NCBI GenBank assembly: GCA_049840735.1
Contig: JASGJN010000009.1
Location: 1 to 64,000, forward strand
Length of the DNA stretch: 64,000 bases
Direction: 5' to 3'
From: Anaeromyxobacter sp.
GTDB taxonomy: Bacteria > Myxococcota > Myxococcia > Myxococcales > Anaeromyxobacteraceae
How positions within the stretch are numbered: position 1 is the stretch's first letter; each line of letters starts with the position of its first letter. A program made the translations under genes and the position numbers. The notes beneath the pieces are model-generated. The model saw only the letters and a program-made list of their open reading frames with translations, did no database searches and was not told the origin of the DNA. Of the stretch, positions 41,415 through 63,470 are shown piece by piece.

Positions 41415-41417
41415 GGC

Positions 41418-42359: not shown

Positions 42360-42371
42360 GTGCGTGGGTTC

Positions 42372-43975: not shown

Positions 43976-44016
43976 GCAGGTCCTCCTGGCGCCGGGGAGG
44001 GCGCGGGAGGACGGTC

Positions 44017-44032
44017 TGCAAGTCACTGGCCA
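44017..44032 (-). promoter_or_regulatory. Putative sigma54 promoter of the 11-gene sugar operon
   Basis: Minus strand TGGCCAG-TGAC-TTGCA, 42 nt upstream of the ATG. Confidence 0.75.
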
Positions 44033-44179
44033 GGGCAGCTTCCCCGGGAGTTCCGGCGGGTTGGGCCGCCGCCGGCCGTACGCCGGGCCCGGCTCGTCAG
44101 CCCGGTGACGGGTCCGGCGGTCCGCGGTCGTCAGCCCCGTGACGAGCAGTGCGGGCCGCGGCGAGCGTGGCCCGGCGCG

Positions 44180-45557: not shown

Positions 45558-47333
45558 GACGCCCTCGCCTCCAGCCCGGTGCTGCGCGTGTCCTTGATCA
45601 TGCGGAGGTAGCGCTGCACGGCCGCGGCCTCCAGGGCCGGCCCCTCGCGCTCCAGCCGCGCCAGGTGGGCCTCGATCAGCGCCAGCGGCTCGCGCGGCTC
45701 GAACCGGAACCCGCCGGCCGGGACCGTGGCCAGCCGCTCCACCAGCGCGCGCACCGCCGGATCGCCGGCGGTGGGCAGCGCCTGCCGGAGCTGTCCCTGG
45801 AGCGACGCGCGCACCGGCTCCCCGGCGCGCGCCAGCCAGTCCACCAGCCGGTCCTCGAGCAGCGGCGCGTACCCGCAGCGCGTCACGAACGCCTGCGGCT
45901 GGAAGCGGGCCTGCAGCGTGGCCATGAGCGCGGCCGCGGCGTGGTCGGGCTGGGTGAGATCCAGCGCCGGGAAGAGCGCCTCGAACGGCTGGGTGTCCAG
46001 GAACGCGGCGGCGGCCCGGGCCGAGTCGTAGATGCCGGCCTCGGTGAAGAGGGCGGTCCCCTGGTTCGGGTGGAGGCGGGTGACGCTGGTGGGCCGGTCC
46101 AGGAAGCGCGCGCGGTAGCGCGCGCTGATCCGCAGCCACAGGTCGTAGTCCTGGCCGTAGCGGAAGCGGAGGTCGAAGCGGCCCACCGCCTCGAACACCT
46201 CCCTGTGCACCGCCACGGTGATGCCGTTCACGTAGTTGACCATCAGCAGCCGGAGCACCTGCTGCTCCACCGGCGGGATGACGTGCGGGACGGAGAGCCC
46301 GGAGGGCTCGACGGCGCCGGACGGCTCGCGCAGGAACCGGTAGTTGGTGTGCATGAAGCGCAGGCCGGGATCGGCCCGCGCCGCCTCGCGGTGGAGCGCC
46401 AGCTTGTCCGGCAGGAACAGAATCGTCGGAGGAGAGCCAGCAGATCCAGTCGCCCCGGGCCTCGGCCAGCGCGCGGTTGAGGGCGCTGGCCACGCCGCCG
46501 TTGGCCTGGCGGAAGGGGCGGATGCGCGGGTCCCGCGCCGCGTAGGCCGCGGCCACCTCGGAGGTCGGGTCGGTGGAGCCGTCGTCCACCACCAGCGCCT
46601 CCCAGTCCGGATCCGTCTGGGCCAGCAGCGAGTCGAGGGCCGCGCCCAGGAAGTGCGCCTGGTTGTAGCAGGGGACCATCACCGAGAAGGTCGGGCGGTC
46701 GCGGCCCGGCGCCACGCCTGCGGGTGCGGGAGCGGCGGGGGCGCGCCGGACCAGGCGCGCTCCGGGGACCTGCACCAGCCGGGCGCCCGCAGCGCGCAGC
46801 CGGCCGGTCAGCGCCTCCGCGGCGCCGTCCCCGGCGCCGGCATCGAGGCCGCCCGCGGCCCGGTAGAACGGCGCGCGCAGGGCGAGGCCGTCGAGCGGGA
46901 GCGACGCCGTCCCGCCGCCTGCGGCCCGCTGCAGCGGGAGCGGGAGCCCCTGCGCGTCGAGGTGCGTCGCGCCTGCGGCCGCCAGGTGAGGGTCGGCCGC
47001 CAGCGGCGCCAGCAGCGGCCGGAGCCAGCCCGGCTCCGGCTGGACGGCGGAGGTGAGGAACACCAGCAGCTCGCCGCGGGCCAGCGCGGCGCCAGCGGCG
47101 GCGGCGCGCGCCGGCCCGAGCGGCGCCGGGTTCCGGTGGAGGATCAGGCCGGGCAGCCGCTGCAGCGCGGCGGCCGTCTCGTCGGTGGTCCCGTCGTCCA
47201 CCACGATGGTCTCGGCCGCGAGGCCGCGGGTCTCCTCGAGGAGCCCCATCAGCAGCGCGAAGGTGTGATCCCAGCCGCCCTGGACGGCGATCACCAGCGA
47301 GACGAGGGGGGCACCGGGGGTGGGCTGGGGCAT
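45554..47333 (-). CDS. Tandem GT2 glycosyltransferase (degenerate plus intact domain); apparent frameshift near 46421
   Basis: SVMVPCYN, VVDDGSTD, NGGVASALN, WLSSDD(LFLPDKL), QDYDLWLR. Confidence 0.9.
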
Positions 47334-47393
47334 GGGCTCAGGGGCTAGGAGGGCATGGCTGACGCGGAGTGGAGGCGCGCCGCCGGGCAGGTG

Positions 47394-47409
47394 TGCAGGA
47401 ACCCTGCCG
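47394..47409 (-). promoter_or_regulatory. Putative sigma54 promoter
   Basis: Minus strand CGGCAGG-GTTC-CTGCA, GG-N10-GC, about 60 nt before the ATG at 47333. Confidence 0.5.
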
Positions 47410-47639
47410 CGGCGCAGCCCCTGGTTCCAGACACTTGCGCCGGGCCGGGCCGTCATTCGGCTGACGTTCGGCGGGGCCGCCGGGGCCCAGGGCCGCGGGG
47501 GGCGCACGCCGGCGGCGAGTCCTGCGCCGCGGGCGTCAGCCGGGTGACACGGACCGGCCCTTGCCGTGCGCGCAGGGTCGGGCCCGGGCGGGCCGGGAGG
47601 ACGGATGCGCCGTCGTCCGGCTCATCACGGCCGGGACCC

Positions 47640-47872
47640 CGCGCCGCTGCCTCCAGCTCACCACCAACGCCTCGCTCCTGACCGAGCCGATGGCCGAGCG
47701 GCTGGCGCCGCGGCTGCACCACCTGGTGGTCTCGCTCAACGCGGCCTGCGCCGACACCCACGAGCGGGACATGAGCAACGGCGAGTGGGAGCGCGTCCCG
47801 GGCGTCTCGCTGGACTCGCGCAACGGCGCGTACCTGCAGGACGCGCAGCGCCTCGCCGCGCGCGCCGGGTAG
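47640..47872 (+). pseudogene. Internal fragment of a radical SAM gene
   Basis: LQLTTNASLLTE...LVVSLNAA..DTHER matches the TTNG...ISLD core; no CxxxCxxC and no credible start. Confidence 0.6.
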
Positions 47873-47954
47873 CGGCCCGCCCCCGGGCCGACCCGGAGGG
47901 CGGCACCGCAGACGGGCCGGACGCCCGGGCGCCGCCCTGCTATGTTCTGTGGCG

Positions 47955-48884
47955 GTGAAGCCCTACCTCGTCGTCAACCCCGCCAGCGCCTCCGGCCGGA
48001 CCGGCCGCCACTTCGACGCCATCGCGCGGGAGGTGCGCGCCGCGGTGGGGGACTTCGAGTACGCCTTCACCGAGCGCCGCGGCGACGGCGTGCGGCTGGC
48101 CCAGCAGGCGCTGGCGGCCGGCGGCAAGCTGGTGGTGGCGGTGGGCGGCGACGGCACGGCCAGCGAGGTCATCGACGGCCTCACCTCGCACACCGGCCCG
48201 CGCGATCCGGAGGCGCTGTTCGGCTTCATCCCGCGCGGCACCGGCGGCGACCTGCGCCGGACCATCGGGATCGGCGGCGACGTGGCCGCGGCGGCCCGCA
48301 CCCTGGCCAGCCGCAGCGTGGCGGTGCTGGACCTGGGCCGGATCGAGTTCGTGGGGCGCGACGGCCGCCCGCAGGTGCGCCACTTCGCGAACGTGGCCGG
48401 GTTCGGCGTGTCCGGCGTGGTCTCGGATCACGTCAACACCGGGCTCAAGCTCCCCAGCGGGAAGCTCTCCTTCATGCTGGCCAGCGCCCGGGCGCTGCTC
48501 ACCTGGTCGGACCGACCGGTCCGCTGGCGGGTGGACGGCGGCCCCTGGCAGGAGGAGCGGGTCACGGCCCTCTCGGTCTGCAACGGGCGCTACTTCGGCG
48601 GCGGCATGCTGGTCGCGCCCGACGCGCGGATGGACGACGGCCTCTTCGACGTCGTGGTCTGGCAGGGGCTGGGGATCGGCGACTTCGTGCTCAAGAAGCA
48701 CAAGCTCTACGACGGCACCCACACCGAGCTGGCCAACACCCGCGTCCTGCGGGGGCGCACCGTGGAGGCCGAGCCGGCGGGGGACGTCGACGTCCCGCTG
48801 GACGTGGACGGGGAGGGGCCGGGCCGGCTCCCGGCCCGCGTCACCCTCCTGCCCGGGGCGCTCCGGATCCGCGTGGGGGCCTGA
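47955..48884 (+). CDS. Diacylglycerol/sphingosine-kinase family lipid kinase (YegS/BmrU-like)
   Basis: VVNPAS, VGGDGT.SEV, PRGTGGD, NGRYFGGGM, DDG.FD, VDGE. Confidence 0.94.
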   Translation: MKPYLVVNPASASGRTGRHFDAIAREVRAAVGDFEYAFTERRGDGVRLAQQALAAGGKLVVAVGGDGTASEVIDGLTSHTGPRDPEALFGFIPRGTGGDLRRTIGIGGDVAAAARTLASRSVAVLDLGRIEFVGRDGRPQVRHFANVAGFGVSGVVSDHVNTGLKLPSGKLSFMLASARALLTWSDRPVRWRVDGGPWQEERVTALSVCNGRYFGGGMLVAPDARMDDGLFDVVVWQGLGIGDFVLKKHKLYDGTHTELANTRVLRGRTVEAEPAGDVDVPLDVDGEGPGRLPARVTLLPGALRIRVGA

Positions 48885-48914
48885 CCCTCCGCACCGCGTC
48901 GCAACGGGACTACC

Positions 48915-49847
48915 ATGCGACGCATGGTCCTCCCGCTCGCCTTGCTGCTCGCCGCCACGCCCATCCCAGTCGTCGCCCCCGCGCCGGTCGTGCCGCGCCA
49001 GGTGGACGGCCCGGGCGAGCTGAAGGCGCTCTGCGCCCGGCTCACCCCCACCGAGCAGCTGCGGCTCGAGGGCGACGCCGTGGAGCGCGGGGAGCGCGAG
49101 GCGCGCCACGAGGAGGAGCGGCAGGCGGCGATCACCGGGCGGTACCTGGTCCGCGTGGACGGGCGCGGGCTGGCCTTCGCGCCGTACGACGGCCCCGAGC
49201 GGCGCCTGACCCTGGCGGAGCCGGCGGCCCTGCCGCTGGAAGGCGGCGCGGTGCGGCTCTGGATGACCGAGGAGCGCGGGCTGCCGGTCAAGGTGGACGC
49301 AGGCGCGGCGAGGGCCATCCTGGCGGCGCAGCGCGCCGGGACGCTGGCCCTGCTGCTCACCTTCGACCTGCCGGACGAGGCGCAGTGCGGAGCCGCCACG
49401 GCCGGGAAGCGGTTCACGCTGGGCGCCGAGCCGGTGGAGTGGATCTGGCTGGACGGCGCGCAGCCGCTGGCGCAGGGCGGGGCCGCCGCCGAGCGGCCGG
49501 TGCTGGACGCCAGCCGCGGCGCCCGCCCGCGGGTGGACGTGGGCGACCCGCTGGCGGGCGGGGCCGAGCTGAAGAAGGCGGTGCTGGCGCGGGCCGAGGC
49601 GCTGGAGGGCTGCTACAAGGACGCCCTGCGCGCGGCGCCGGCGCTGGACGGCGTGCTGGTGGTGGAGCTGGGGGCGCCGCAGCCGGCGGTCTCGGCCGAC
49701 TCCACCGGCTCGGCCGAGCTGGCCGCCTGCGTGGCCCGGGCGCTTGCGCCGGTGACGGCCGGCATGGGGACGGTGCCCATCCGCTTCGAGCTGCTGCCCC
49801 CGGGCGCCCCGCTCCCGGCGTCGGCCGGCAGCGGCGCGTCGCAGTAG
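48915..49847 (+). CDS. Exported hypothetical protein with AgmX/TonB-C-like C-terminal domain
   Basis: Signal-like N-terminus; LEGCYKDALRAAPALDG.LVVEL...LAACV pattern. Start may be 48924. Confidence 0.65.
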   Translation: MRRMVLPLALLLAATPIPVVAPAPVVPRQVDGPGELKALCARLTPTEQLRLEGDAVERGEREARHEEERQAAITGRYLVRVDGRGLAFAPYDGPERRLTLAEPAALPLEGGAVRLWMTEERGLPVKVDAGAARAILAAQRAGTLALLLTFDLPDEAQCGAATAGKRFTLGAEPVEWIWLDGAQPLAQGGAAAERPVLDASRGARPRVDVGDPLAGGAELKKAVLARAEALEGCYKDALRAAPALDGVLVVELGAPQPAVSADSTGSAELAACVARALAPVTAGMGTVPIRFELLPPGAPLPASAGSGASQ

Positions 49848-49922
49848 CCGCGGCCCCGGCGCTGGCCCCGCGGCGCCGCGCCCGACCGCGCGGGCGCCGG
49901 ACGTGCCACAATGGCGGCCTGC

Positions 49923-52190
49923 ATGGACCGCCTCCGCGACCGGCTCCGGCCCGGCGACCTCGTCCTCACCGCGCTCCTCGCCACCGCCTGCGGGCTGACG
50001 CTGGCGCGCTGGCCCGCCCACCCCGAGGTGCTGGCGCCGCTGGTGCGCCACGCCGCGCTCCTGGCCGGGTTCGGCGGGCTCCTGGCGCTGGCGGTCGCCG
50101 GCCGGCTGCCGGCCTCCTCGGCGGTCCGGGTGGTGGCGAGCCTGGCCGTCATGTTCTCGCTCTACGAGAGCCTGGGCCGGCTGGGGTTCCTGCTGCACGA
50201 CGGCACCGCCGACGCCGCCCTCTCGCGGCTCGACCGGGCGCTGCTGGGGGTCGAGCCGGCGCTGTGGCTGGACGGCCGCGCCGGTCCGGCGCTGGTCGAG
50301 GCCATGAGCTTCGTCTACCTGTTCTTCATCGGCTGGGTGTACCTGTCCATCGCCCTGGAGTGCCTGGGGCGCGAGGAGGAGGACCGCGAGGCCTTCCTGC
50401 TCGGGCTGATGCTCACCTACTGCCTGGGCTACCTCGGCTATGTCCTGCTGCCGGCCCAGGGGCCGGCCGGCTTCCACACCCAGCTGGCGGCGCTGCAGGG
50501 CGGCCCCATCCACCGCGCCATGCGCGCGGCGGTGGAGGGCAACGGCGGCGCCATCGGCGCCTTCCCCTCGCTCCACGTGGGCGGCGCGCTCTACCTCTGC
50601 CTCTTCGACCTGCGGCGCAACCGGATGCGCGGCCTGACCTACGTGCCGGTGGTGCCGCTGGTGGCGCTCTCCACGGTGATCCTGCGCTGGCACTACGTGG
50701 TGGACTGGCTGGGCGGGGCGGCCATCGCGCTCCTGGCACTGGCCGCCACCGGGCCGCTCTCGAGGGCCTGGCGCGGCCTCCCGCGCCCGGCCGCGGCGCC
50801 GCGGCCTGCGCCCGCCGCCGCCACGCCCGGCCTCTTCTACCGCGCCTTCCGCGGCCACGTCCGGCGCGTGCTGCGGGTCTTCTTCCGCAGCCTCGAGGTC
50901 AGCGGGCTGGAGCACGTGCCGGCCGAGGGGCCGGTGCTGGTGGTGGCGAACCACGTCAACGGGTTGGTGGACCCGCTCCTGTTCCTGGCCGCGCTGGACC
51001 GGCACCTGACGCTCTCCGGCAAGAGCACGCTGCGCAAGAACCCGCTCCTGCGCCTGCTCATGGGGGCGCTGGACATGGTGGTGTTCCACCGGTCGCAGGA
51101 CCGCGGCAAGGGGGCGGAGCTGCGCGAGAACGCCCGCAGCATGGCCCGCTGCCAGGCGCTGCTGGCCGCCGGCGACGCGCTCCTCATCTTCCCGGAGGGC
51201 GAGAGCCACTCCGACCCGGGCATGCGCCCCTGGAAGCCGGGGGCCGCGCGCATCGCCGCCGAGTTCGCCCGCCGCCACCCGCAGGCGCGGCTGGCGGTGA
51301 TCCCGGCCGGCCTCTACTTCACGCAGAAGGACCGCTTCCGCTCCGGCGTGGCGCTCCGCTTCGGCCCGCCGCTGCCGCTCCCGGCGCTGCTGGCCGAGGC
51401 CGAGCGCGGGGCCGAGGCGGTGCGCGCGCTCAACGGCGCGGCCGACGCCGCGGTCCGCGAGCTCTCGCTCAACCTCGAGACCGAGCGCCAGTCGCAGGTG
51501 TTGGGCTGGGCCGCGGAGGTGCTGCTGGCGCGGCTCAACGGCCCGCGCCTCCCCGGCGAGCTGGTGGCCACCGCCGCCGAGGAGCTGGAGGTGAAGCGGG
51601 CGCTGCACGCCGGCCACCGCGCGCTCTCGGCCCAGGACCCGGCGCGGCTGGCCTCCCTGGAGGCGCGGGTGGGGGGCTACCACGCCAGGCTGCGCAGGCT
51701 GGGGCTGGAGGCGGCGGAGATCCGCGTCCACCACACCGCCGCCCGCTCGGTGCTGTTCGCGGTGCGCGAGCTGGAGCTCTTCGCGGTGGGGCTGCCCTGG
51801 GCGCTGCTCGGCCTGGCGGGGAGCGCGGCGCCCTATCTCCTGGTGGACGGCTTCGCCCGGCTCACCGCCCGCGACCTCGACCACTGGGCGGCCCACAAGA
51901 TCTACCCGTCGCTCCTGGTCTACCCGCTCTGCTACCTGGCCGAGGCGGCGCTGGTGGGCGCCTGGCTGGGGCCGTGGGCCGGGCTGGCCGCGCTGGCGCT
52001 CCTGCCCGCCGCCGGCGGCTACGCGCTGCTCTGGCGCGAGCGCATGCACGACGCGGCCCGGCGGGTCCGCACCTTCCTGGCCCTCGCCGCGCGTCCGGGG
52101 CTGGCCCGGGCGCTGGTGGAGGAGGGCGACGCCATCCACGAGACTCTGGCCGAGGTGCAGGGCCAGCTCGGCCTGCTGCGAGGAGCCTGA
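49923..52190 (+). CDS. Fusion of a PAP2-family (Aur1/PAP2_3-like) membrane domain and a PlsC-like acyltransferase
   Basis: PAQGP, AFPSLH, RWHYVVD; then ANHVNGLVD, LIFPEG.SH, IPAGL.F; continuous ORF with an Ala/Pro linker. Confidence 0.88.
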   Translation: MDRLRDRLRPGDLVLTALLATACGLTLARWPAHPEVLAPLVRHAALLAGFGGLLALAVAGRLPASSAVRVVASLAVMFSLYESLGRLGFLLHDGTADAALSRLDRALLGVEPALWLDGRAGPALVEAMSFVYLFFIGWVYLSIALECLGREEEDREAFLLGLMLTYCLGYLGYVLLPAQGPAGFHTQLAALQGGPIHRAMRAAVEGNGGAIGAFPSLHVGGALYLCLFDLRRNRMRGLTYVPVVPLVALSTVILRWHYVVDWLGGAAIALLALAATGPLSRAWRGLPRPAAAPRPAPAAATPGLFYRAFRGHVRRVLRVFFRSLEVSGLEHVPAEGPVLVVANHVNGLVDPLLFLAALDRHLTLSGKSTLRKNPLLRLLMGALDMVVFHRSQDRGKGAELRENARSMARCQALLAAGDALLIFPEGESHSDPGMRPWKPGAARIAAEFARRHPQARLAVIPAGLYFTQKDRFRSGVALRFGPPLPLPALLAEAERGAEAVRALNGAADAAVRELSLNLETERQSQVLGWAAEVLLARLNGPRLPGELVATAAEELEVKRALHAGHRALSAQDPARLASLEARVGGYHARLRRLGLEAAEIRVHHTAARSVLFAVRELELFAVGLPWALLGLAGSAAPYLLVDGFARLTARDLDHWAAHKIYPSLLVYPLCYLAEAALVGAWLGPWAGLAALALLPAAGGYALLWRERMHDAARRVRTFLALAARPGLARALVEEGDAIHETLAEVQGQLGLLRGA

Positions 52191-52191
52191 C

Positions 52192-54684
52192 GTGCCCACC
52201 CCCTCCGTCGTCCGCTTCCTGGAAGAGCCCGCCTGCACGCTGTCCCGCGACTGCGGCGGCAAGGGGGCCAACCTGGCCCGCCTGACACAGGCCGGGTTCG
52301 CGGTGCCCGCCGCCTTCGTGGTCACCGGCCAGGCCTACGCGGCCCTGGTGCGGAGCCTGCCCGGCCTGGCCGGGCAGATCGCCGCCCTGCAGGGGCTCCC
52401 GGCGGCGGAGCTGCCCGCCCGCGCGGCCGCCATCCGCATGCGGCTGGCCGCGACGCCGCTGCCGGCGGCGCTGGCTGCGGAGCTGGCGGCGGCGGTGACC
52501 CGGCTGGGCGCGCAGCGCGTCTCGGTCCGCTCCTCCTCCACGCTGGAGGACCTGGCCGAGGCGGCCTTCGCCGGCCAGCACGACACCTACCTGGCGGTGG
52601 CGCCGGAGGACGTTGCGGCCCGGGTGCGCGACTGCTTCGCCTCGCTCTTCGAGGAGCGGGCGGTCCTCTACCGGGCCCGTCTCGGCTTCTCCCACGCCGA
52701 GGCCCGCATGGCGGTGGTGGTCCAGCGCATGGTGGAGAGCGCCGTCTCCGGCGTGGCCTTCACCCTCGACCCGGTCTCCGGCGCGCTGGACGAGGTGGTG
52801 GTGGACGCGGCCTTCGGGCTGGGCGAGGCGGTGGTCTCCGGCGAGGTCACCGCCGATCACCACCGGCTCTCGAAGGCCACCCTGGCGCCGCTGGAGGAGC
52901 GGATCGGGGCCAAGGAGGTGCAGATCCGCTCCGGCGAGAAGGGCACCGTCACGGTGCACGAGGCCGCCGCGGACCGGCTGGCGCTGACCCGCGCGCAGCT
53001 GCAGGAGGTGGCGCGCACGGCGGTCCGGATCGAGGAGGCCTTCGGCTTTCCGCAGGACGTGGAGTGGGCGCTGGACGCGGGCGGGGCGCTGCACGTGCTC
53101 CAGGCCCGCCCGGTCACCACCATCCCGCCGCGCTGGACGCGCGACGAGTCGGCGGAGCGGTTCCCCAACGCCATGACGCCGCTGGGCTGGGACTTCGCGG
53201 AGGCCGGCTTCCACGAGTCGCTCCGGCACTCGCTGGCGCTGATGGGCTTCCCGCCCTTCCCGGGGAAGTGGTTTGGGCTCTTCGACGGGTACGTCTACGG
53301 CAACGAGAGCGCGGTGAAGCTCTTCCTGGGCGCGCGCCGCTTCCCCTTCCGGACCGCCGACGAGCTGCGGGCGCTGCTGCCGCGGGCGCGCGAGGCGTAC
53401 GGCTGGGTGTTCGAGCTGCCGCCGGCCTGGGCCCGTGACCTGGACCGCTACCTGGTGGGCGTGGGGCGGCTCGGGGGCGAGCCGGCGCCGGGCGCGGACC
53501 CGCGCGCCCACTGGGCCCGGGTGCTGCGCGTGGAGGCGCTGGGGCGCGAGTACTTCCGCCCCAACATCGCCATCTCCATCACCCACGGCTTCCTGCACCG
53601 CGCGCTCTTCCAGGCGCTGGCGCTCTTCTTCCCCGCCGCGGAGGCCCGCGCGCTCTACGACCGGCTGACGCGCGTCTGCGACACCAAGACCTCGGCCGTG
53701 AACGCCGACCTGGCGGCGCTGGCGCGCGCCGCCCGCGCCGACCCCGGGCTGGCCGCGGCGCTGCGCGAGCGCGACAGCCGGGCGCTGGCCGCGCCGGCGG
53801 GGCTCTCGGACTGGCCGGCCTTCCAGGCGCGGTTGGAGCGGTTCCTGGAGGACCACGGCCACCGCGAGAACGATCCCGATCCCTACCAGCCGACCTGGGG
53901 CGAGGCGCCCTGGGTGGTGCTGGACCAGCTCAAGGTGCTGGTGGCGCGCGAGGAGGAGGAGGCGCCCGGCGACCGCGAGCTGCGAGCCCGCGCGGCCCAG
54001 GCCGAGGCCGAGCTGGAGCTCCTGCCGCGGCTGCCCGAGGACCTGCGCTTCTTCTTCTCCGAGCTCCTGCGGCTGGCCCGGGCCTACTCGGCCCTGGACG
54101 ACCTCGAGCACTACCAGTCCACGCGGCTGCAGCGGCTCTTCCGCCGCGCGCTGCTGGAGATGGGGCGGAGCCTGGCCGGCCAGGGGCTCCTGGCGCGCGA
54201 GGACGACCTCTTCTTCGCCCGGCGCGCCGAGCTGGAGGCGGCGGTGGCCTCCGGCGACTTCGGCCCGCTCCGCGCCGCCGCGGCGGCCGGGCGGACCGCC
54301 TACGACGCCGCCCTGCGGCGGTCGCCGCCCTGGACGCTGGGCGCGGACGAGCCCGCCGCCGCGGCGGAGGGGGCGCTGCGCGGGATCCCCGGCTCGCCGG
54401 GCGTGGCCGAGGCGCCGGTGTTCGTGGTCCGGTCGGTGGAGGACTTCCCGCGCTTCCCGCGCGGCGCGGTGCTGGTGGCGCGCACCACCAACCCGTCCTG
54501 GACGCCGCTCTTCCACGCCGCCGCCGCGGTGATCACCGAGTCGGGCGGGCCGCTCTCGCACGGCGCCGTGACCGCCCGCGAGCTGGGGCTGCCGGCGGTG
54601 ATGGCCGTGAAGGGCTGCATGGCGCTGCCCGACGGCGCGGTGGTGCGGGTGGACGGCGCGCGCGGCGAGGTGGTGCGGCGGTAG
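52192..54684 (+). CDS. PEP-utilising-enzyme superfamily dikinase with RPH/PigC-type architecture
   Basis: ATP-grasp motifs GGKGANL, VRSS..ED...AFAGQ, DVEWA..LQARP; helical middle; C-terminal GGPLSHGAVTARE; no PEP/pyruvate TIM barrel. Confidence 0.9.
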   Translation: MPTPSVVRFLEEPACTLSRDCGGKGANLARLTQAGFAVPAAFVVTGQAYAALVRSLPGLAGQIAALQGLPAAELPARAAAIRMRLAATPLPAALAAELAAAVTRLGAQRVSVRSSSTLEDLAEAAFAGQHDTYLAVAPEDVAARVRDCFASLFEERAVLYRARLGFSHAEARMAVVVQRMVESAVSGVAFTLDPVSGALDEVVVDAAFGLGEAVVSGEVTADHHRLSKATLAPLEERIGAKEVQIRSGEKGTVTVHEAAADRLALTRAQLQEVARTAVRIEEAFGFPQDVEWALDAGGALHVLQARPVTTIPPRWTRDESAERFPNAMTPLGWDFAEAGFHESLRHSLALMGFPPFPGKWFGLFDGYVYGNESAVKLFLGARRFPFRTADELRALLPRAREAYGWVFELPPAWARDLDRYLVGVGRLGGEPAPGADPRAHWARVLRVEALGREYFRPNIAISITHGFLHRALFQALALFFPAAEARALYDRLTRVCDTKTSAVNADLAALARAARADPGLAAALRERDSRALAAPAGLSDWPAFQARLERFLEDHGHRENDPDPYQPTWGEAPWVVLDQLKVLVAREEEEAPGDRELRARAAQAEAELELLPRLPEDLRFFFSELLRLARAYSALDDLEHYQSTRLQRLFRRALLEMGRSLAGQGLLAREDDLFFARRAELEAAVASGDFGPLRAAAAAGRTAYDAALRRSPPWTLGADEPAAAAEGALRGIPGSPGVAEAPVFVVRSVEDFPRFPRGAVLVARTTNPSWTPLFHAAAAVITESGGPLSHGAVTARELGLPAVMAVKGCMALPDGAVVRVDGARGEVVRR

Positions 54685-54687
54685 GGC

Positions 54688-56016
54688 TCAGCGCGCCGCG
54701 GCCGTGTCCCCGCCCGCGGGGATGCGCGCCGCGGCGGCCGAGAGCTCGGTCCGCAGCGCGGCGCGCTCGGCCCGGACCCGGGCCAGGGCGGCGCCGCCGC
54801 GCAGGCGCAGCCAGGCGGCGTGGAGCAGCGCCCGCAGCGGCTCGCTCCCCTCGTCGAAGGCCAGCGCGGCCGCGGCCGCAAGCGCCGCGCCCAGCGCCGC
54901 CAGCCAGCCGGCGGCGGCCCCGCGCCAGAGCCCGGCGGCCAAGCCGGCGGCGGCCCAGGTGAGCGGGAAGAGCAGGAGCCCGTAGCCCAGCTTGAGCGTG
55001 GCGAACATGGAGAGGTCGCCGCGGGCCGAGCGCCGCGCCAGCAGGTCCACCGCCCTCCACGCCGGCCAGTGCACCAGCGCGCCCAGCAGCGCCGCCGGGG
55101 CCAGCAGCAGGTGGAGCCCTGCGCGCGCCAGCGCCGCGGCGCGGAGCCGCTCCAGGGGATCCGGGCCGGCCAGGCCGCAGGCCTCGCGCAGCGCCTGGTG
55201 GCGGCGCAGCCGGTCCTCCAGGCTGGCCAGCGCCTCCGGGTCGTGGGCCGCCAGCCAGGAGCGCCCCCCCAGCAGCCGCTGGCGCAGCGCCACCCGCTCC
55301 GCCAGCGGCGCCGCCTCCTCCTCGGTGAAGAGCCGCTCCGCCGCGCCCGCCAGCGCCAGCGCGCCGTCGCTCTCGGCCTGCAGCACCAGGGCGTCCAGGC
55401 CGGCGCGGATCCCGCCGGTCAGCGCGCGCACCTCGGCCGGCGCCGGCTCGCCCTCCGGCGAGAGCGGGGCCGGGTTGACCTCGATGGGCGGCCCGAAGGC
55501 GATCAGCACCTCGCTGCGGAAGGTGCCCTTGTCGGTGAAGACCAGCCCCGCCGGCACGATCGAGAGCGGCAGCCCCTCGCCGGTGGAGGCGGCGCCCAGC
55601 GCGATGCGCGCCGCGCCGGACTTGAGCGGCTTCATCCGGGGATCGTCGTGCGAGGTCCCCTCGGGGAAGAGGGCCAGCACGCCGCCGCGGCGCAGCAGCG
55701 CCCGGGCCGCGGTGAAGGTGGCCGCGTTCCTGCGCGGGTCGGCGCCGTCCATGGCCCGGTAGACCGGGATGGCGTCCAGCGCGCGCGCCGCGGCGCCCAC
55801 CACCGGGATCCGGAAGAGCGGCTCCTTGGCCAGGAAGGAGACCGGGCGGTCCACCCAGGCGAGCAGCAGGATGGGATCGATCAAGGCGCTGGGGTGGTTG
55901 GCCACCACCACCGCCGGCCCCGCCGCGGGCAGGTGGCCGGCACCGGTGAGCTCCACGCGCCGGAAGAACACCCGCAGGAGCGCGCGAAGGGTGGGGCGGA
56001 GGACCGCGCGGATCAT
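54688..56016 (-). CDS. Lysophospholipid/glycerol-phosphate acyltransferase family protein
   Basis: ANHPSALID, FLAKEPLF, IPVYR, LFPEG.SH, VPAGL.F; C-terminal TM helices. Confidence 0.9.
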   Translation of the reverse strand: MIRAVLRPTLRALLRVFFRRVELTGAGHLPAAGPAVVVANHPSALIDPILLLAWVDRPVSFLAKEPLFRIPVVGAAARALDAIPVYRAMDGADPRRNAATFTAARALLRRGGVLALFPEGTSHDDPRMKPLKSGAARIALGAASTGEGLPLSIVPAGLVFTDKGTFRSEVLIAFGPPIEVNPAPLSPEGEPAPAEVRALTGGIRAGLDALVLQAESDGALALAGAAERLFTEEEAAPLAERVALRQRLLGGRSWLAAHDPEALASLEDRLRRHQALREACGLAGPDPLERLRAAALARAGLHLLLAPAALLGALVHWPAWRAVDLLARRSARGDLSMFATLKLGYGLLLFPLTWAAAGLAAGLWRGAAAGWLAALGAALAAAAALAFDEGSEPLRALLHAAWLRLRGGAALARVRAERAALRTELSAAAARIPAGGDTAAAR

Positions 56017-56165
56017 GCGGTCCCTCGGCGCTCGCGCCCGCCATGCCACGCCTCGACGAGCAGGTCTACGAGGGTGAGCACCCCCGGCGCATGCCCCGCG
56101 GCGCCGGCGAGGAGCGGCCGGCGGGCCTGGGCGGGAGGAGCGGTCGACGCGGCGGGCACGGGCAT
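56013..56165 (-). pseudogene. Internally deleted copy of the MFS gene (50-codon minigene)
   Basis: MPVPA...LL.GAAG.A..VLTLV matches the MFS N-terminus; EAWHGGR matches its C-terminal EAWLGRR; shared upstream GCTGCTATCCT. Confidence 0.75.
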
Positions 56166-56560
56166 GGAGCGCGGAGGATAGCAGCCGGGACGGCCGCTCC
56201 GGCAAACCGTGCGCGCCACCTCCACCCCCGCGAGGCGCATGGCCGGAACGCGGCCAGGTCCTGGCCTCGCCGCAGCGCGCCAGGCTTCACCGGGATCAAG
56301 CTCCTGGGACGCCGCCTGGGGGCCTTGCCCCAGCGGTGCGGCAGAGACCCGCTCCGGCGCAGGTCTTTCGTCCGGAGTGAACGCCGCGCCGCAACGCCCC
56401 CGGGAATTCGGCCGCGATCTCCGCAGCTTGTTCGCGCCTGGCGCCGCGGCTTTGACTGAACGCATCGTGAAGCCTCAGGGTCGCGCGCATCCGCATGGAG
56501 CGCCTGGAGGGCCAGGCGCGGGCCCACCAGGGAAGGGCCGGAGTCACCTTGGAGAATGCC

Positions 56561-57457
56561 ATGACGAAGAAGATCGAGGAGAAGTCGGACCTGACCCGCC
56601 GCAACCTGCTGGGCCGCGCCGGCCTGGCGCTGGGCGGCCTCGTCTCGCTGGGCGCGCTGCAGGGCTGCGGCGACGGCGGTGGGACCACCGAGGAGCCGCC
56701 GCCCCCGCCGCCGACCGGGCCGCAGGTCAACGAGTTCCCGTACCAGCAGCACCTGCCGGACGGCTACGCCATGGCGGACCTCCCGGCGGTGCAGGAGGCC
56801 GCCTACCACGGCTACTACGCGGGCGGCTGCTGCCACGGCGCGTACAGCGCCATCCTGGCCAAGCTGGCGGCCGACGTGGGCGCCCCGTACGACAAGCTGC
56901 CGCTCGACTTCGGCAAGTTCGGCGGCGGCGGCATCGCCAGCTACGGCTCGATTTGCGGCGCCGTCCTGGGCGGCGTGCTCCACATCAACATGATGGTCGC
57001 GGACGCCACCGCCCGCGGCAACATGATGACCGACCTCATGCGCTGGTACGAGCGGACCGCGTTCCCGATGTACAGCCCCGCCGCGGTGGACGCGGCCGAG
57101 ACGGGCCTCACCCTGGACTTCTCGCAGAGCAACCTGGTCCAGCTGGGCGTCGTCCCGGGCACGCATCTCTGCCACGGCTCGGTCACGCGCTGGTGCTCGG
57201 AGATGGGCGTGGCGGCCGGCGGCGCCGACAAGAAGGCGCGCTGCGCGCGGCTCACCGCCGACGTGGCGGGCAAGGTCGCCGAGATGCTCAACGCCTACCT
57301 GGCCAACGCCGCCTACACCCCGGCCGGCCGCGACGACACCTCGAACACCTGCGTGGCCTGCCACACGCCGGCGACGACCAACAAGCCGCCGGTCGCCTCG
57401 GGCATGGAGTGCGCCTCGTGCCACTCCGACAAGGTCGAGGGGCACCCGGGCCTCTAG
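56561..57457 (+). CDS. Split-Soret cytochrome c-like (C-GCAxxG-C-C family) Tat lipoprotein, diheme
   Basis: TRRNLL Tat motif, LQGC lipobox, GGCCHG, GSICGAVLG, LCHGSV..WC, RCARL, CVACH and CASCH. Confidence 0.88.
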   Translation: MTKKIEEKSDLTRRNLLGRAGLALGGLVSLGALQGCGDGGGTTEEPPPPPPTGPQVNEFPYQQHLPDGYAMADLPAVQEAAYHGYYAGGCCHGAYSAILAKLAADVGAPYDKLPLDFGKFGGGGIASYGSICGAVLGGVLHINMMVADATARGNMMTDLMRWYERTAFPMYSPAAVDAAETGLTLDFSQSNLVQLGVVPGTHLCHGSVTRWCSEMGVAAGGADKKARCARLTADVAGKVAEMLNAYLANAAYTPAGRDDTSNTCVACHTPATTNKPPVASGMECASCHSDKVEGHPGL

Positions 57458-57466
57458 GCCATCGAG

Positions 57467-57508
57467 GCCCCCGCGCTCCCCGGCCAGCTTCCCGGGGAGC
57501 GCGGGGGC
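57467..57508 (+). terminator. Strong hairpin after the cytochrome gene, no U-tract
   Basis: 17-bp perfect stem GCCCCCGCGCTCCCCGG/CCGGGGAGCGCGGGGGC. Confidence 0.6.
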
Positions 57509-57619
57509 GCTGCCCTCGGGGCGCCGGGCGATGTAGGTGAGTCACCCTCCCGCGCGCGGGAACTGGCCCCACGCGTCTGGCGCCGGGCCTGGCCCCGTGC
57601 GAACCTCTGCGCCGCGCCC

Positions 57620-59035
57620 GTGGCGCTCACGGGCGCCCACCGCCGGAGGTCACCGCTGTCCGCACCCCTGCCGTCGCCCGCCGCGTCGCCGTTCCTGGGG
57701 TTCGGGAGCGAGGAGGCGCTGCGCGCCACCGCCGCCGCGCTGCCGGAGGGGCTGTTCACCACGGACCTGGACGGCCGGGTCACGCACTGGAACGCCGCCG
57801 CGGAGCGGATCACCGGCTGGTCGCCCGCCGAGGCCATCGGCCGGACCTGCTCCCTCCTCTCCGGCGACGTGATCAACGGCTGCGCCTGCGGCGCCGGCCC
57901 GCTCCGGTGCGCGCTCGCGGCCACTGGACGCTCCTCCAAGACCTGCACCATTCGCACCAAGGACGGGCGGCTCCTCCTCATCGTGAAGAACGCGGTCCGG
58001 CTGCTCGCGCCGGGCGGCGAGACGGTCGGGGCGCTGGAGACGTTCACGCCGGTCGGCCCGGCGGGGCAGGAGGCCGGGACCGGGTGCGATCCCGCCCTGC
58101 CGGCGCCCGGCGCGCTGGTGGGCCGCCACCCCACCGTCCGCGAGCTGCAGCGGGTCATCGGCCTGGTGGCGCGATCGTCGGCCACGGTGCTGGTCGTCGG
58201 CGAGAGCGGGGTCGGGAAGGAGCTGGTGGCCGAGGCCATCCACGCGGCCAGCCCGCGGGCGGAGCGCCCGCTGGTGCGCGTCCGCTGCGCGGCGCTCGGC
58301 GAGGTGCAGCTGGAGCGCGAGCTGTTCGGCGCGGCCGGCGGGGCCGAGGGCGAACTGGTGCGGGCCCGCGGCGGGACGCTCCTCCTCGACGAGATCGGGG
58401 ATCTCCCGGCCCGCGTGCAGGCCAAGCTCCTCCGCGTACTGGAGGCCCGAGAGGTCCTGCGCCCCGGCGACGAGCGGGCCCGGCCCGTCGACGTCCGCCT
58501 GGTGTGCACCACGCACCGCGAGCTCCGCGCCCAGGTGGACGCAGGGGTGTTCCGCGCCGACCTCTACTTCCGGCTGGCCGCGTTCCCGGTCCACGTGCCC
58601 GCGCTGCGCGATCGCGTGGAGGATCTCCCGCTGCTGGTCGGCGCCTTCCTCCGCGCCGAGGAGCCGGCACGCCCCCACGTGCGGCGGGTACGGCCGGCGG
58701 CGCTGGCCGCCCTGGCGGCGTACCGCTGGCCGGGGAACGTGCGCGAGCTGCACAACGTGCTCGCCTACGCGATGCTCCAGGCCGGCGACGGTGAGCTGGA
58801 CGTCCCGCACCTGCCCGGCCACGTCCGCACCCGGCGTCCCCTCCCGCGCCCGCGCCCGGCGGCGCCGGTGGACGAGGAGGCCGGCCGGCTGCGGGCGCTG
58901 CTCGACGCGTGCGGCTGGAACCGCGCGGAGGCGGCGCGACGCCTGGGCATCTCCCGGGTGACGCTGTGGAAGCGGCTCAAGGCGGCCCGGATCGGCCCCC
59001 CGCCGCCCCCAGGGCCGGCGCGGCGGCGCTCCTGA
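57620..59035 (+). CDS. PAS-AAA+-Fis HTH regulator (NtrC-like) lacking GAFTGA
   Basis: WNAAAERITGW PAS; GESGVGKE; LLDEIG; FRADLYFRL; WPGNVREL; WNRAEAARRLGISRVTLW. Start is uncertain. Confidence 0.92.
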   Translation: MALTGAHRRRSPLSAPLPSPAASPFLGFGSEEALRATAAALPEGLFTTDLDGRVTHWNAAAERITGWSPAEAIGRTCSLLSGDVINGCACGAGPLRCALAATGRSSKTCTIRTKDGRLLLIVKNAVRLLAPGGETVGALETFTPVGPAGQEAGTGCDPALPAPGALVGRHPTVRELQRVIGLVARSSATVLVVGESGVGKELVAEAIHAASPRAERPLVRVRCAALGEVQLERELFGAAGGAEGELVRARGGTLLLDEIGDLPARVQAKLLRVLEAREVLRPGDERARPVDVRLVCTTHRELRAQVDAGVFRADLYFRLAAFPVHVPALRDRVEDLPLLVGAFLRAEEPARPHVRRVRPAALAALAAYRWPGNVRELHNVLAYAMLQAGDGELDVPHLPGHVRTRRPLPRPRPAAPVDEEAGRLRALLDACGWNRAEAARRLGISRVTLWKRLKAARIGPPPPPGPARRRS

Positions 59036-59059
59036 GCCGCGTCAGTGCCCGCGGTCACC

Positions 59060-59195
59060 CGCGCCCGGACCCAGCGCTGCCGGGCCTGCTCGCGCTCCCT
59101 CGTGCGTCGGGAGGTCGGCGTGCGCGCCGTGAGCGCCGCCAGCAGCGCGGCGGTGGCGGCGGCCACCTCGTCCACCGCCCGCTCGGACGCCGCGC
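59060..59195 (-). pseudogene. 3' remnant of a second DUF2277 gene
   Basis: Translates ERAVDEVAAATAALLAALTART...REQARQRW versus ERAVDAVAEATTALLGGLTART...LEKARARW at 60599..60865. Confidence 0.8.
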
Positions 59196-59221
59196 AGAGT
59201 CGGGCGGACGAGCGCGGAGCA

Positions 59222-60496
59222 TCACGCCGCGGTCGCCTTTCGCCGGCCGAGCCAGGCCTCCAGGCACCAGAAGAAGCCGGCCAGCAGGACCGCCACCGGG
59301 ACGATCAGCACGGCCCGCCCCAGCGTCGAGTGATCCGAGATCCAGCCGATCATGGGCGGGGAGGGGACGTCGCCCAGCAGGTGGATGGTGAGGATGCTGA
59401 GGGCCACGGCGGTGGCCCGCTCGCCGGGCTTCACCACGTTGACGATCTCGGAGTTGATGGGGCCGGTGGAGGCGAAGAGGAGCAGCTCGGCCAGGATCAC
59501 CGCCGGCAGGTAGATTGAGGGGCTCTCCGCGACGAAGACCACCCAGGCCAGCGGCGCGGCCAGCAGCGCCGCGATCCCGGAGAGCCAGAGGTAGGCCTGC
59601 GCCGAGCGCTTGAGGAGGCGGTCCCCCAGCCAGCCGCCCGCGAAGGTGCCCACGAAGCCGGTCACCACCACGATGGCGCCGAAGAGCACGGTGGCCTGCT
59701 GGGTGGGAACGTTCCGTTCACGCTCGAGGAAGGCCGGCATCCAGAAGGCCATGCCGCCGATGGCGAAGGTGTACGCGGCGTAGCCGATCACCGTGAGCAG
59801 GTAGGTGCGGTTGCGGAGCAGGTCGAGGTAGGTGGCGAGCAGGTTCGGCGGAGGCGCGTGGGCCTCGTCGTGATCCTGGGCGCCGCGCGGAGGGTCCGGC
59901 AGGCGCAGGCAGAGCAGCGCCAGCAGCAGCCCGGGCAGGCCGGCGATGAAGAAGGCGGCGCGCCAGCCCAGGGCGTGCTCCACCAGCCCCCCGATGACGA
60001 ACCCGAGCGCCGAGCCGATGGGGATGGCGCAGAAGAAGAACGCCATCACCCGTCCCCGCAGCGTCTTCGGGTAGAGGTCGGCCAGGAGCCCCGGGGTGAT
60101 GGTGCCGTAGGCGGCCTCGCCCACGCCCACCGCCGCGCGGGCGGCGAAGAGGCCGAGGAAGCTGCGCGCGAAGCCGGCCAGCGCGGTGGCCAGGCTCCAG
60201 ATCAGCACGCCCAGCGCCACCAGCCGCGGGCGGCGCAGCCGGTCTCCCAGCGCGCCGAAGACCGGTGAGGTGAGCATGTAGACCACCACGAAGCCGGTCA
60301 TGAGCAGGCCGGCCTGGGTGTCGCTGAGCCTCAGCTCCGACCGCTTCAGCGGCTCGACCAGCGCCGAGACCACGAAGCGGTCGAGGTAGTTGAAGAGGTT
60401 GACGAGGGTGAGGACCACGAGCGCGCGGCCGGCCGCGCCGACGAGCAGGGACCGTGGGGCCTCGGCGGGGGCGGGGACAGGGGCGGGGACGGGCAT
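59222..60496 (-). CDS. Spinster-like MFS transporter
   Basis: NLFNYLDR, SDTQAGLL, G.LGDR..R, RAAVGVGEA, WRAAF..AG.PG, HLLGD..SP; about 12 hydrophobic helices. Confidence 0.92.
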   Translation of the reverse strand: MPVPAPVPAPAEAPRSLLVGAAGRALVVLTLVNLFNYLDRFVVSALVEPLKRSELRLSDTQAGLLMTGFVVVYMLTSPVFGALGDRLRRPRLVALGVLIWSLATALAGFARSFLGLFAARAAVGVGEAAYGTITPGLLADLYPKTLRGRVMAFFFCAIPIGSALGFVIGGLVEHALGWRAAFFIAGLPGLLLALLCLRLPDPPRGAQDHDEAHAPPPNLLATYLDLLRNRTYLLTVIGYAAYTFAIGGMAFWMPAFLERERNVPTQQATVLFGAIVVVTGFVGTFAGGWLGDRLLKRSAQAYLWLSGIAALLAAPLAWVVFVAESPSIYLPAVILAELLLFASTGPINSEIVNVVKPGERATAVALSILTIHLLGDVPSPPMIGWISDHSTLGRAVLIVPVAVLLAGFFWCLEAWLGRRKATAA

Positions 60497-61709: not shown

Positions 61710-62987
61710 TCAGCGGCAGAGTTGCATCCCACCGGCCGCCTCCAGCGCGGCGGCGCGCGAGGCCAGGTGGCCGCCGTCGGTGGTCGGGCTGGTCTGGTCC
61801 CCCTGGCCCGCGCCGAAGGCCACGCCCACCGCGCCGGCGTTGGCCAGCCGGTCGGGGTGATCGAAGAAGTAGTCCAGGCGGTTGTCCCGGTAGTGCTGGG
61901 CGCCGCCGGGCAGGGACATGTTCCCCACCGGCACCTGCCACCAGACCAGGGGCTTCCCCACCGCGACCGCGACCGCCTCGCCCCAGGCCAGGATCTGCTC
62001 GAAGTCGGGCAGCGTGGCGTCTGTGGGATCGAGCCACCTGTTGCTGTACTGCGCGTCGCGATCGGCCAGGTCGGCCACCACCACGTCGCCCTGGCCGGCG
62101 CCGCAGGCGGCCAGGAACGCGCCCACCTTGGTCCCCTCCACCGCCGGGTCCACCGACGGATCCGTGTTGGTGCCCAGGTCGAAGCGGCTGCCCCAGGGCG
62201 AGGCGTGGAGCGCCACCTTGGCCGCGGGCGCGTACTTGCGGACCATGGCGACGTAGCAGCGCCCGAGGCCGGCGATCGAGTCCTCCAGCCCGGCGCAGTC
62301 GGTGGGATTGGCGGTGGCCACCTGGGCCGGGAGCGCGTGCGGGTCGGCGCCGGCGTACTGCGCGTAGCCCCAGAAGTCGGGCTCGACGTGCACCAGCGCC
62401 GGCGCGCTGCCGATCTTCTGCAGGAGGAAGCGGAAGTCGGCCAGGTAGCGCTGCATGAAGGCCAGGTTGCGCGCGGCCTGCGTCACCTCGGGCGTGCCCT
62501 CCTGCACGCCGCTCGACTGGAGGAGCACGTAGTACGTGAACATGGGCAGGAGCCCCTCGCCGGCGCTCGTCGACACGAAGTCGGTCGCGAACTGCCCGGG
62601 CGCCACCTGGTCCCACTGCCAGCAGCCCCACCAGCTGCACCCGCCGCTGGCGTTGGCGCAGGACTGCCCGCCGGAGCTGCAGCTCGAGGCGCAGGAGGCG
62701 CAGGGGCCGGCGCCGTCCGGCAGGCCACCGGCGATGTACTGGTAGCGGAGGTCGAAGCCGGCGCCGGAGGCCACCACGTCGCTGTCGGTGGAGAGGCCGA
62801 TGAGCAGGTGGTCGGGCGCGAAGCCCGGCGCGGCCGCGCCGGCGCAGCTTGTCGGTCCCGTCGGTCCCGTCGGTCCCGTCGGTCCCGTCGGTCCGGTCGG
62901 GCCGGTAGGACCGGTCGGCGGGGTGCTGGCGTCGCCGCAGGCGGCCAGGATGAGCAGGGCGGCCAGCGCGGTGGTGCGGGTCGTCAC
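61710..62987 (-). CDS. Lipoprotein with (GPT)n linker and putative glycoside-hydrolase-like domain
   Basis: LILAAC lipobox; PTG repeats; Cys/Trp-rich loop; HVEPDFWGY; WWQVPVGN. Confidence 0.75.
   Translation of the reverse strand: MTTRTTALAALLILAACGDASTPPTGPTGPTGPTGPTGPTGPTGPTSCAGAAAPGFAPDHLLIGLSTDSDVVASGAGFDLRYQYIAGGLPDGAGPCASCASSCSSGGQSCANASGGCSWWGCWQWDQVAPGQFATDFVSTSAGEGLLPMFTYYVLLQSSGVQEGTPEVTQAARNLAFMQRYLADFRFLLQKIGSAPALVHVEPDFWGYAQYAGADPHALPAQVATANPTDCAGLEDSIAGLGRCYVAMVRKYAPAAKVALHASPWGSRFDLGTNTDPSVDPAVEGTKVGAFLAACGAGQGDVVVADLADRDAQYSNRWLDPTDATLPDFEQILAWGEAVAVAVGKPLVWWQVPVGNMSLPGGAQHYRDNRLDYFFDHPDRLANAGAVGVAFGAGQGDQTSPTTDGGHLASRAAALEAAGGMQLCR
62851..62919. repeat. 9-bp coding tandem repeat (GTCGGTCCC)n encoding Gly-Pro-Thr
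   Basis: Four exact and several degenerate units. Confidence 0.9.
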
Positions 62988-63063
62988 CGGCTGAACATAG
63001 CGTACCCGCGGTGAGGGCGCCGGGGTCGAGCGGGGCGGAGCCGCCGGCGCTAAGGATGAAGGG

Positions 63064-63470
63064 ATGCAGCGTCCTACACCAGCCTCCATCGTCGCGCTGC
63101 TCCTGGCGGGGGTCGCGGCCACCGCCGCGGCGCAGGGTCGCCGGGCCTACCCGGCCGACGCGCGCCCGGTGGACCTGCAGCAGGGGCAGTGCGAAGGCTG
63201 CGACGGCCCGGCGGCCAAGGCCGCGTGCCGCGCCTTCTCGCTCACCGCCGCGCAGGTGCAGGCGCTGCTGCGCGAGGGACGGTTGGTGGGGCCGCCGACG
63301 CGCCGGAGCGCGTCCCCTGCCGCGTCCGCGGCCGGCTGGTCTGGGAGGGCGGCGAGGCCGGGCTCGACGTGGACGCGAACCTGACCGCGCAGCTGACCTT
63401 GCCCGGAGACCGGCAGGTCCTGGTGGCCTGCGAAGGGCCCTGCGCGGCGGCGGTGGCGCGGGCCCGCTGA
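63064..63470 (+). CDS. Small exported Cys-containing hypothetical protein; apparent frameshift near 63295
   Basis: Signal peptide ending AAA; C..F.LT..QV; continues PCRVRGRL...CEGPC in the next frame. Confidence 0.6.

Follow-up and report, generated by a model that had tools for sequence, protein, structure and literature searches.

A conserved PAP2, acyltransferase and dikinase cassette in Anaeromyxobacter sp. and its possible role in glycerolipid salvage

What do a membrane phosphotransferase fused to an acyltransferase and a dikinase with the architecture of rifampin phosphotransferase (RPH) accomplish together when their genes lie a single nucleotide apart? The question is raised by a 12.5-kb span (positions 47,955 to 60,496) of a 64,000-nucleotide stretch of Anaeromyxobacter sp. 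DNA (assembly GCA_049840735.1, contig JASGJN010000009.1, positions 1 to 64,000). This stretch, hereafter the window, opens contig C9 of a host genome (G000) of 6.67 Mb and ~74% GC. An earlier note, made from the letters of the window, had read the span as a lipid-remodelling system. Three enzymes, two of them in the PAP2-acyltransferase fusion and the third the dikinase, make up one conserved cassette. The span as a whole is made of three unrelated units: a backbone pair, the core cassette and a separate Spinster-acyltransferase pair. The cassette may salvage or detoxify single-chain glycerolipids by removing their headgroup at the outer face of the membrane and rebuilding phosphatidic acid (PA) at the inner face, a reading to which we assign a probability of roughly 45%.

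Composition and distribution of the cassette

The core cassette has the following features:
49911-52190, + strand: PAP2_3 + acyltransferase fusion, 759 aa, one continuous open reading frame (ORF)
49911-50780, + strand: Aur1-like PAP2_3 domain of the fusion, with a His222/His261/Asp265 triad
50811-52190, + strand: HX5D-type glycerolipid acyltransferase domain (AT1) of the fusion (PF01553; His348, Asp354, Arg394, FPEGxSH), with C-terminal membrane helices
52192-54684, + strand: RPH-architecture dikinase, 830 aa, GTG start, with PPDK_N and PEP-utilizers domains

An ORF check with Pfam and NCBIfam scans recovers all ORFs named in the earlier note at their places, and the spacing it reported at the heart of the cassette is confirmed: the TGA of the fusion gene ends at 52190 and the dikinase GTG begins at 52192, leaving a gap of 1 nt. 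A GAGGAG element lies within the end of the fusion gene, just 5' of this GTG, and together with the 1-nt gap suggests that the two genes are translationally coupled. The GC content at third codon positions (GC3) is 0.96-0.99 across all eight ORFs of the span.

The three enzymes travel together in many bacteria. A query with the middle domain of the dikinase returned 986 proteins; among the 120 listed, the next matches beyond six close relatives are 48-55% identical, and two (P0020 and P0098) carry an N-terminal acyltransferase on the dikinase itself, 42% identical to the fused domain of the window. A 44-member dikinase alignment was used to find loci in genomes (best 80 of 512 matches, yielding 77 loci) and in metagenomes (best 80 of at least 647 matches, yielding 78 loci, some of which duplicate genome loci). 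Linkage was defined as the presence of PAP2 and acyltransferase genes both within 5.5 kb on the same strand, and loci with at least 4 kb of upstream sequence were counted. Both genes are found just upstream of the dikinase in 59/62 genome loci and 40/42 metagenome loci, so that the neighbourhood survey called for by the earlier note reveals a conserved linkage to lipid genes. Control loci of other RPH-type dikinases from the phylum of the window (10 loci of 9.6-17 kb) have PAP2 in 0/10 and one weak acyltransferase match. The misses are L018, which has the acyltransferase only, and L035, L044, L135 and L162; in three of the latter four a gene for a DUF255 thioredoxin-domain protein stands upstream of the dikinase instead.

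The order acyltransferase-PAP2-dikinase is found in 51 genome and 35 metagenome loci, and PAP2-acyltransferase-dikinase in 18 and 22, respectively; the two orders use different acyltransferase subfamilies. Fusions are of five kinds: PAP2-acyltransferase, acyltransferase-PAP2, acyltransferase-dikinase, acyltransferase-C92 peptidase and LplT-like MFS-acyltransferase (MFS, major facilitator superfamily). Other records contain full-length PAP2 plus acyltransferase fusions (P0122 at 73% identity, P0130-P0141 at 34-48%) and close kin (L090) have the two as separate genes, showing that the fusion is natural and optional rather than a local artefact. A triple fusion was not found among proteins of 1454-4150 aa, which is weak evidence. 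Across loci, pairwise distances in any one of the three proteins are correlated with those in the other two (Spearman 0.82, 0.77 and 0.90; 52/69 loci with long enough sequences), values that are inflated, and partly explained, by kinship. In the Longimicrobium loci L027, L028, L057 and L079, one or two genes of 210-245 aa without Pfam match lie between acyltransferase and dikinase.

Judged by record titles, cassette loci occur in 12 named phyla, some labels being doubtful because, in trees built with FastTree, Actinomycetota rows nest among Verrucomicrobiota or Pseudomonadota. Within groups the dikinase is rare: it is found in 0/36 genomes of the genus of the window, in 1/91 of its family (a broken remnant, G283) and in 1/251 genomes of a Verrucomicrobiota sample, the centre genome only, which gives no power for co-occurrence. 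We infer that the cassette is an accessory module spread by transfer. No match to it was found in plasmids, viral contigs or PADLOC. The remnant (L182; G283:C111, 8434-9485) is 81% identical to the dikinase of the window, is in two frames and lacks the ATP-grasp part. Its locus has no PAP2 or acyltransferase gene, a Spinster-like MFS gene lies 3 kb away, and it looks like a decayed cassette.

Active sites of the three enzymes

The dikinase is composed of PPDK_N (residues 21-312), a helical middle domain and a C-terminal PEP-utilizers domain (755-825) bearing His790. Its structure model (pLDDT 88.5) has RPH as best solved match (Foldseek E 4e-42), and the middle domain, for which the earlier note had proposed structure prediction, takes the Rph_4th fold. 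Residue conservation was scored on 86 non-redundant full-length dikinase rows (of 118). K24, R113, T132 and H790, the equivalents of RPH K22, R117, T136 and H825, are invariant (86/86), and conversion of ATP to AMP and Pi through phospho-His790 is therefore expected.

The acceptor side is different. The RPH sequence Arg666-Glu667-x-x-Lys670 aligns to D636-D637-x-E639-H640, kept in all 86 rows. In the family, R317, E322 and R323 of the sequence R317-D-E-S-A-E322-R323 (W-T-R-D-E-S-A-E-R versus W-x-N-x-N-x-x-E in outgroups) are also invariant, as is R645; outgroup dikinases retain R-E at the acceptor motif. Residues ~317-487 do not align to RPH. As far as the alignment to RPH places these residues together, the acceptor site is remodelled. 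In RPH-Lm (5FBS/5HV1; NF041857) the second transfer requires Arg666 and Glu667, and no general base was identified (PMC4844700). HapC retains the Arg (PMC13534948), and the related dikinase HpeHI is described as a high-affinity scavenger (PMC12167813). RPH-Lm, PigC, HapC, RedH, HpeHI, CreHI and PpsAB share domain order, fold and ATP/His residues with the dikinase; they differ from it at the acceptor site, and the dikinase, for its part, is joined to membrane lipid enzymes by fusion or adjacency. In the parts of the sources covered, no glycerolipid is reported as a substrate of any of these relatives.

Family scores set the enzyme apart in the same way. It misses the cut-offs for RPH (NF041857, 348.9 versus 999; NF000283, 236.4 versus 1700), PigC (296.7 versus 1300), RedH (333.1 versus 1350) and PEP synthase (TIGR01418, 330.9 versus 739.75). 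No match to PEP-utilizers_C, the phosphoenolpyruvate (PEP)-binding barrel, is found in it, and its His domain is C-terminal and not central as in PEP synthase and PPDK. Neighbours of the 155 loci include no recurrent biosynthetic (prodiginine) cluster. Identity with RPH, PigC or PEP synthase is thus rejected, the cut-offs being missed widely and Arg666 being replaced by Asp. The description "RPH/PigC-type" in the earlier note holds for the RPH architecture and the ATP/His machinery, and fails if taken to mean either enzyme. Its proposal of an acceptor other than pyruvate is supported by the family scores, the D-D-x-x-H site and the lipid-gene linkage. A tblastn search of the host genome with the dikinase gave no full-length PEP synthase paralog and one weak match on C22 (34%, 158 aa).

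The PAP2_3 domain (residues 103-278 of the fusion, E 3e-21) passes the Pfam cut-off and has the His222/His261/Asp265 triad and the LPT fold. Eight membrane helices are predicted, with an outward-facing active site. The assignment as Aur1-type stands, yeast Aur1 being closest. The yeast inositol phosphorylceramide (IPC) synthase (9IVC/9VJ4; PAP2_3) is nevertheless only 16-17% identical to the cassette domain, which has an Arg two residues before the nucleophilic His (51/52 rows) and is fused to an acyltransferase; the Aur1 partner Kei1 is not seen in cassette loci. The fungal motifs are IPCS1, DhhnWxxYxxxHxxxP, and IPCS2, YxxxGxxxGLxRxD (bioRxiv 10.1101/2023.07.07.548115). Of IPCS1 only the Tyr and the Pro find a counterpart, IPCS2 coincides with a gap or with unrelated residues, and by these motifs the domain stands outside the fungal IPC synthases. 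Aur1 has both termini in the cytosol and a luminal active site (PMC12122681), a topology that fits both fusion orders. The motifs that we take to define PgpB/LpxE-type phosphatases, KxxxxxxRP (C1) and SRxxxxxHxxxD (C3), are absent as well: PAxGP stands at C1 and S/A-T replaces SR (T255 in 52/52). Arg259 might substitute for the missing phosphatase-motif Arg.

AT1 (residues 328-465 of the fusion, E 2e-20) has motif I H348-V-N-G-L-V-D354 (HX5D), R394 and FPEGESH, and the motifs are invariant in 38/38 rows. With five residues between His and Asp it matches motifs I-IV of the fungal-type HX5D glycerol-3-phosphate acyltransferases (GPATs), as tabulated in PMC4207751 (see also PMC7613133). Sct1 and Gpt2 share with it HxNxxxD, the motif II Arg, FPEGxSH, xxPxG and C-terminal membrane helices. 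AT1 differs in being bacterial, in a short motif II-III spacing (~33 residues), in hosts that keep PlsY and in relatives fused to PAP2, dikinase, C92 or LplT-like MFS; the comparison with the yeast proteins was made by motif. With this motif pattern the acceptor of AT1 is likely to be phosphorylated. PlsY is present in the host genome and in 4/5 and 5/5 carrier genomes (one genome is common to both sets), and FabZ/FabA in 5/5. Because carriers keep these genes, AT1 is not the housekeeping GPAT, and the idea that the cassette stands in for de novo synthesis of PA or fatty acids is discarded.

Genes flanking the cassette

The other features of the span are:
47949-48884, + strand: YegS/DAGK-family kinase, not cassette
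48915-49847, + strand: hypothetical protein, 310 aa, no Pfam/NCBIfam match, not cassette
54688-56016, - strand: second HX5D acyltransferase (AT2), separate unit, partner of the Spinster-like MFS
56495-59035, + strand: split-Soret-like cytochrome c + PAS sigma-54 activator, between MFS and AT2, not lipid-related
59222-60496, - strand: Spinster (Spns)-like MFS transporter, separate unit, upstream of AT2 on the same strand

The earlier note had counted the kinase, as a diacylglycerol (DAG)/sphingosine kinase gene, among the members of the system and had left out the 310-aa hypothetical gene, the cytochrome and the sigma-54 activator. No homolog of the DAGK-family kinase, of the hypothetical gene or of the cytochrome was found in the 155 cassette loci, and only weak ones of the MFS. 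The kinase and the 310-aa gene are adjacent, with no cassette gene, in 14/14 same-genus 15-kb regions fetched, and the 310-aa gene is found in 31/36 genomes of the genus. They form a backbone pair of the genus, and the cassette lies behind it; the kinase, found in 0/155 cassette loci and present in the 14 cassette-free regions, is ruled out as a cassette member. The 310-aa protein has an N-terminal hydrophobic segment and its gene lies directly behind the kinase in all 14.

AT2 and the MFS, also listed as part of the system, are a real pair of another unit. AT2 is 40% identical to AT1 over 289 aa. It groups with MFS-linked acyltransferases of relatives, apart from the cassette acyltransferases, and is not the sister of AT1; tree placement and MFS pairing speak against a local duplicate or a cassette member. 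The best solved relative of the MFS is human SPNS2 (phmmer E 1.4e-55); the solved bacterial MFS 6E8J (E 1e-34) is more distant from it than human SPNS1/2 (E ~1e-55). The MFS occurs in 84/151 genomes of the order of the window. An AT2 homolog adjoins it in 5/5 AT2-homolog regions fetched and in 12 of the best 29 MFS loci in relatives, none of which has cassette genes in 1.5-kb flanks. The combination recurs in the order (L183, L194-L197, L202-L227), tandem or convergent by family, and is likely an LplT/Aas analogue. Apparent MFS-AT2 fusions in three relatives were dismissed, the long open frames being shadow frames with the MFS in another frame. The cytochrome and sigma-54 activator genes, absent from the MFS-AT2 pairs of relatives, would be an insertion in the window. 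The cytochrome scores 155 bits, below the cut-off of 400, and has a twin-arginine-like leader.

Further out, positions 39600-47900 hold sugar-nucleotide/glycosyltransferase genes (epimerase/dehydratases, phosphoheptose-isomerase-like, methyltransferase), named by reading translations, a stretch closed by a short fragment at 47561-47872. A secreted-looking protein with PTG repeats and several cysteines, without Pfam match, is encoded at 61710-63122. GC falls to 0.55-0.64 at the contig start (1-4000) versus ~0.75 elsewhere.

A possible salvage route and its alternatives

The observed linkage, fusions, intact catalytic residues and changed acceptor site can be joined in a salvage route of four steps. 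His261 of the PAP2 domain would attack the phosphate of a lysophospholipid at the outer face, as the Aur1 fold and topology suggest, passing the headgroup to water or another lipid alcohol and releasing monoacylglycerol. This neutral lipid, or one from the medium, could flip inward without a transporter. The dikinase would then convert ATP, the lipid hydroxyl and water to lyso-PA, AMP and Pi via phospho-His790, a chemistry taken from RPH with a putative lipid substrate; Asp636/His640 could supply the base needed by an aliphatic alcohol, and the two high-energy bonds spent would make scavenging irreversible. Finally, to judge from the fungal GPAT motifs, the acyltransferase may add a chain to the hydroxyl left free, probably a primary one, so that PA becomes available to the CDP-DAG pathway. 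Such a path would be the simplest closed one to involve all three enzymes and respect their predicted sides, and it would need no transporter. An intermediate with one chain would account for the acyltransferase being always present, since only then is it needed; with two DgkA matches in the host genome, plain DAG recycling would be redundant there.

Several neighbours point in the direction of lysolipid repair. Aas and/or LplT genes stand beside the cassette in 14/77 genome loci (nine by family scan, five by cluster membership) of at least two dikinase clades, and an LplT-like MFS is fused to the cassette acyltransferase in L088. Family scans detect no LplT/Aas component in the cassette unit of the window; matches above cut-off to true LplT and Aas come only from genes next to the cassette in other loci. 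Both systems would serve the same proposed end, the re-acylation at the inner face of lipids with a single chain. In LplT/Aas the lysolipid is flipped intact by LplT and acylated by Aas, its phosphate unchanged; the cassette lacks its own flippase and acyl-ACP synthetase but includes a phosphotransferase and a kinase. LplT/Aas handles lysophosphatidylcholine (LPC) poorly (PMC8590670), which leaves room for a complementary route. The pairing of sister HX5D acyltransferases with Spinster-like MFS is also counted for salvage, human SPNS1 moving LPC for re-esterification (PMC10115416). C92 permuted-papain genes with conserved His and Cys are found in 13/77 genome loci (L013, L024, L025, L033, L037, L046, L051, L060, L066, L073, L076, L082, L086), a set that does not overlap with the Aas/LplT loci. 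The C92 protein, 480 aa in length, has an extended helical region at its N terminus; fusions to the acyltransferase are seen in L033, L082 and L117. LnsA, of the same permuted papain-like class, takes the sn-1 chain of phosphatidylglycerol (PG) (PMC13559823).

A number of observations weigh against salvage. Aur1 is a ceramide headgroup transferase and not a hydrolase (PMC13133130), and Sct1/Gpt2 acylate glycerol-3-phosphate and dihydroxyacetone phosphate, not lyso-PA (PMC7613133). No Aas/LplT is nearby in 63/77 genome loci, carriers keep de novo synthesis so that salvage is not forced, and the commonest gene order, acyltransferase-PAP2-dikinase, does not match the proposed reaction order. PAP2 is missing from L018, and family dikinases stand without PAP2 and acyltransferase in L035, L044, L135 and L162. 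An amine or a metal could equally well be bound by the acidic acceptor site. In 4/5 small-genome carriers no DgkA was found, which fits a DAG-kinase role instead.

The most serious competitor, possible if doubtful, is synthesis of an undescribed membrane lipid, with a His-swivel lipid kinase and the HX5D acyltransferase inside and the Aur1 relative adding or exchanging a phospho-headgroup outside. PAP2 would take the headgroup from phosphatidylethanolamine, PG or phosphatidylcholine and pass it to a lipid alcohol that the acyltransferase helps to make, while the role of the dikinase would be to prime the acceptor for acylation or to re-phosphorylate the DAG by-product. If true, the pathway would be self-contained and present in a dozen phyla with mostly unstudied lipidomes. 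No backbone or headgroup gene is conserved with the cassette, though, and AT1 keeps the phosphate-binding motifs II and III, which would leave its product phosphorylated and not a ready acceptor; the two DgkA matches and the repeated Aas/LplT links, which favour repair, likewise tell against it. Outside-in salvage of a sphingoid or other amino-alcohol lipid, which corresponds to the sphingosine and ceramide substrates considered in the earlier note, is unlikely. PAP2 would remove the headgroup or phosphate, C92, if present, deacylate, and the acidic dikinase site bind the amine before re-acylation, much as yeast takes up sphingoid phosphates by phosphatase, kinase and then acylation. D636, D637, E639 and E322, invariant in 86/86 rows at the acceptor site, would suit an amine, and Aur1 and SMSr are ceramide enzymes. 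However, HX5D enzymes are known as O-acyltransferases, C92 occurs in only 13/77 loci, and the DAGK/sphingosine-kinase gene and the Spinster MFS lie outside the cassette. A motif search, which does not exclude the enzyme, found no serine palmitoyltransferase (SPT) in the host genome; the two alpha-oxoamine-synthase genes it detected fall under every SPT cut-off and are scored as BioF and Kbl.

LpxT hands on the terminal phosphate of C55-PP, and by analogy the cassette might shuttle phosphate across the membrane, the dikinase making a lipid pyrophosphate from PA or lyso-PA and PAP2 passing its terminal phosphate to a periplasmic acceptor. DDxEH with invariant R317, R323 and R645 could bind metal and an anionic acceptor, and the predicted positions of the two catalytic sites are on opposite sides of the membrane. 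Such a shuttle is improbable: it needs a flippase that the cassette does not have, PAP2 is without the usual monoester-binding residues and no acceptor pathway is linked. Least probable of all is a dikinase that works on pyruvate or serves to inactivate rifamycins or some other small xenobiotic, next to incidental lipid genes. RPH is its best solved relative, automatic names are "rifampicin phosphotransferase" or "pyruvate, water dikinase", and the tblastn query with the dikinase found no full-length PEP synthase paralog in the host genome. Set against this are scores far under the RPH, PigC, RedH and PEP synthase cut-offs, Asp in 86/86 rows at the Arg666 that RPH requires (PMC4844700), the C-terminal His without PEP-binding barrel, and a near-universal linkage to lipid genes, fusions included. 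A small share of probability, just short of that given to the sphingoid route, is left to readings not thought of.

A full-text literature search, with subscription journals and supplements outside its scope, retrieved no description of the cassette or of a lipid-acting RPH-type dikinase, in agreement with the earlier statement that no characterised pathway has this combination; the lipocone paper (PMC12419801) makes no mention of dikinases in the part covered. If salvage of single-chain glycerolipids is the function of the cassette, it would complement LplT/Aas, and its dikinase would be a kind of lipid kinase new to the literature searched.

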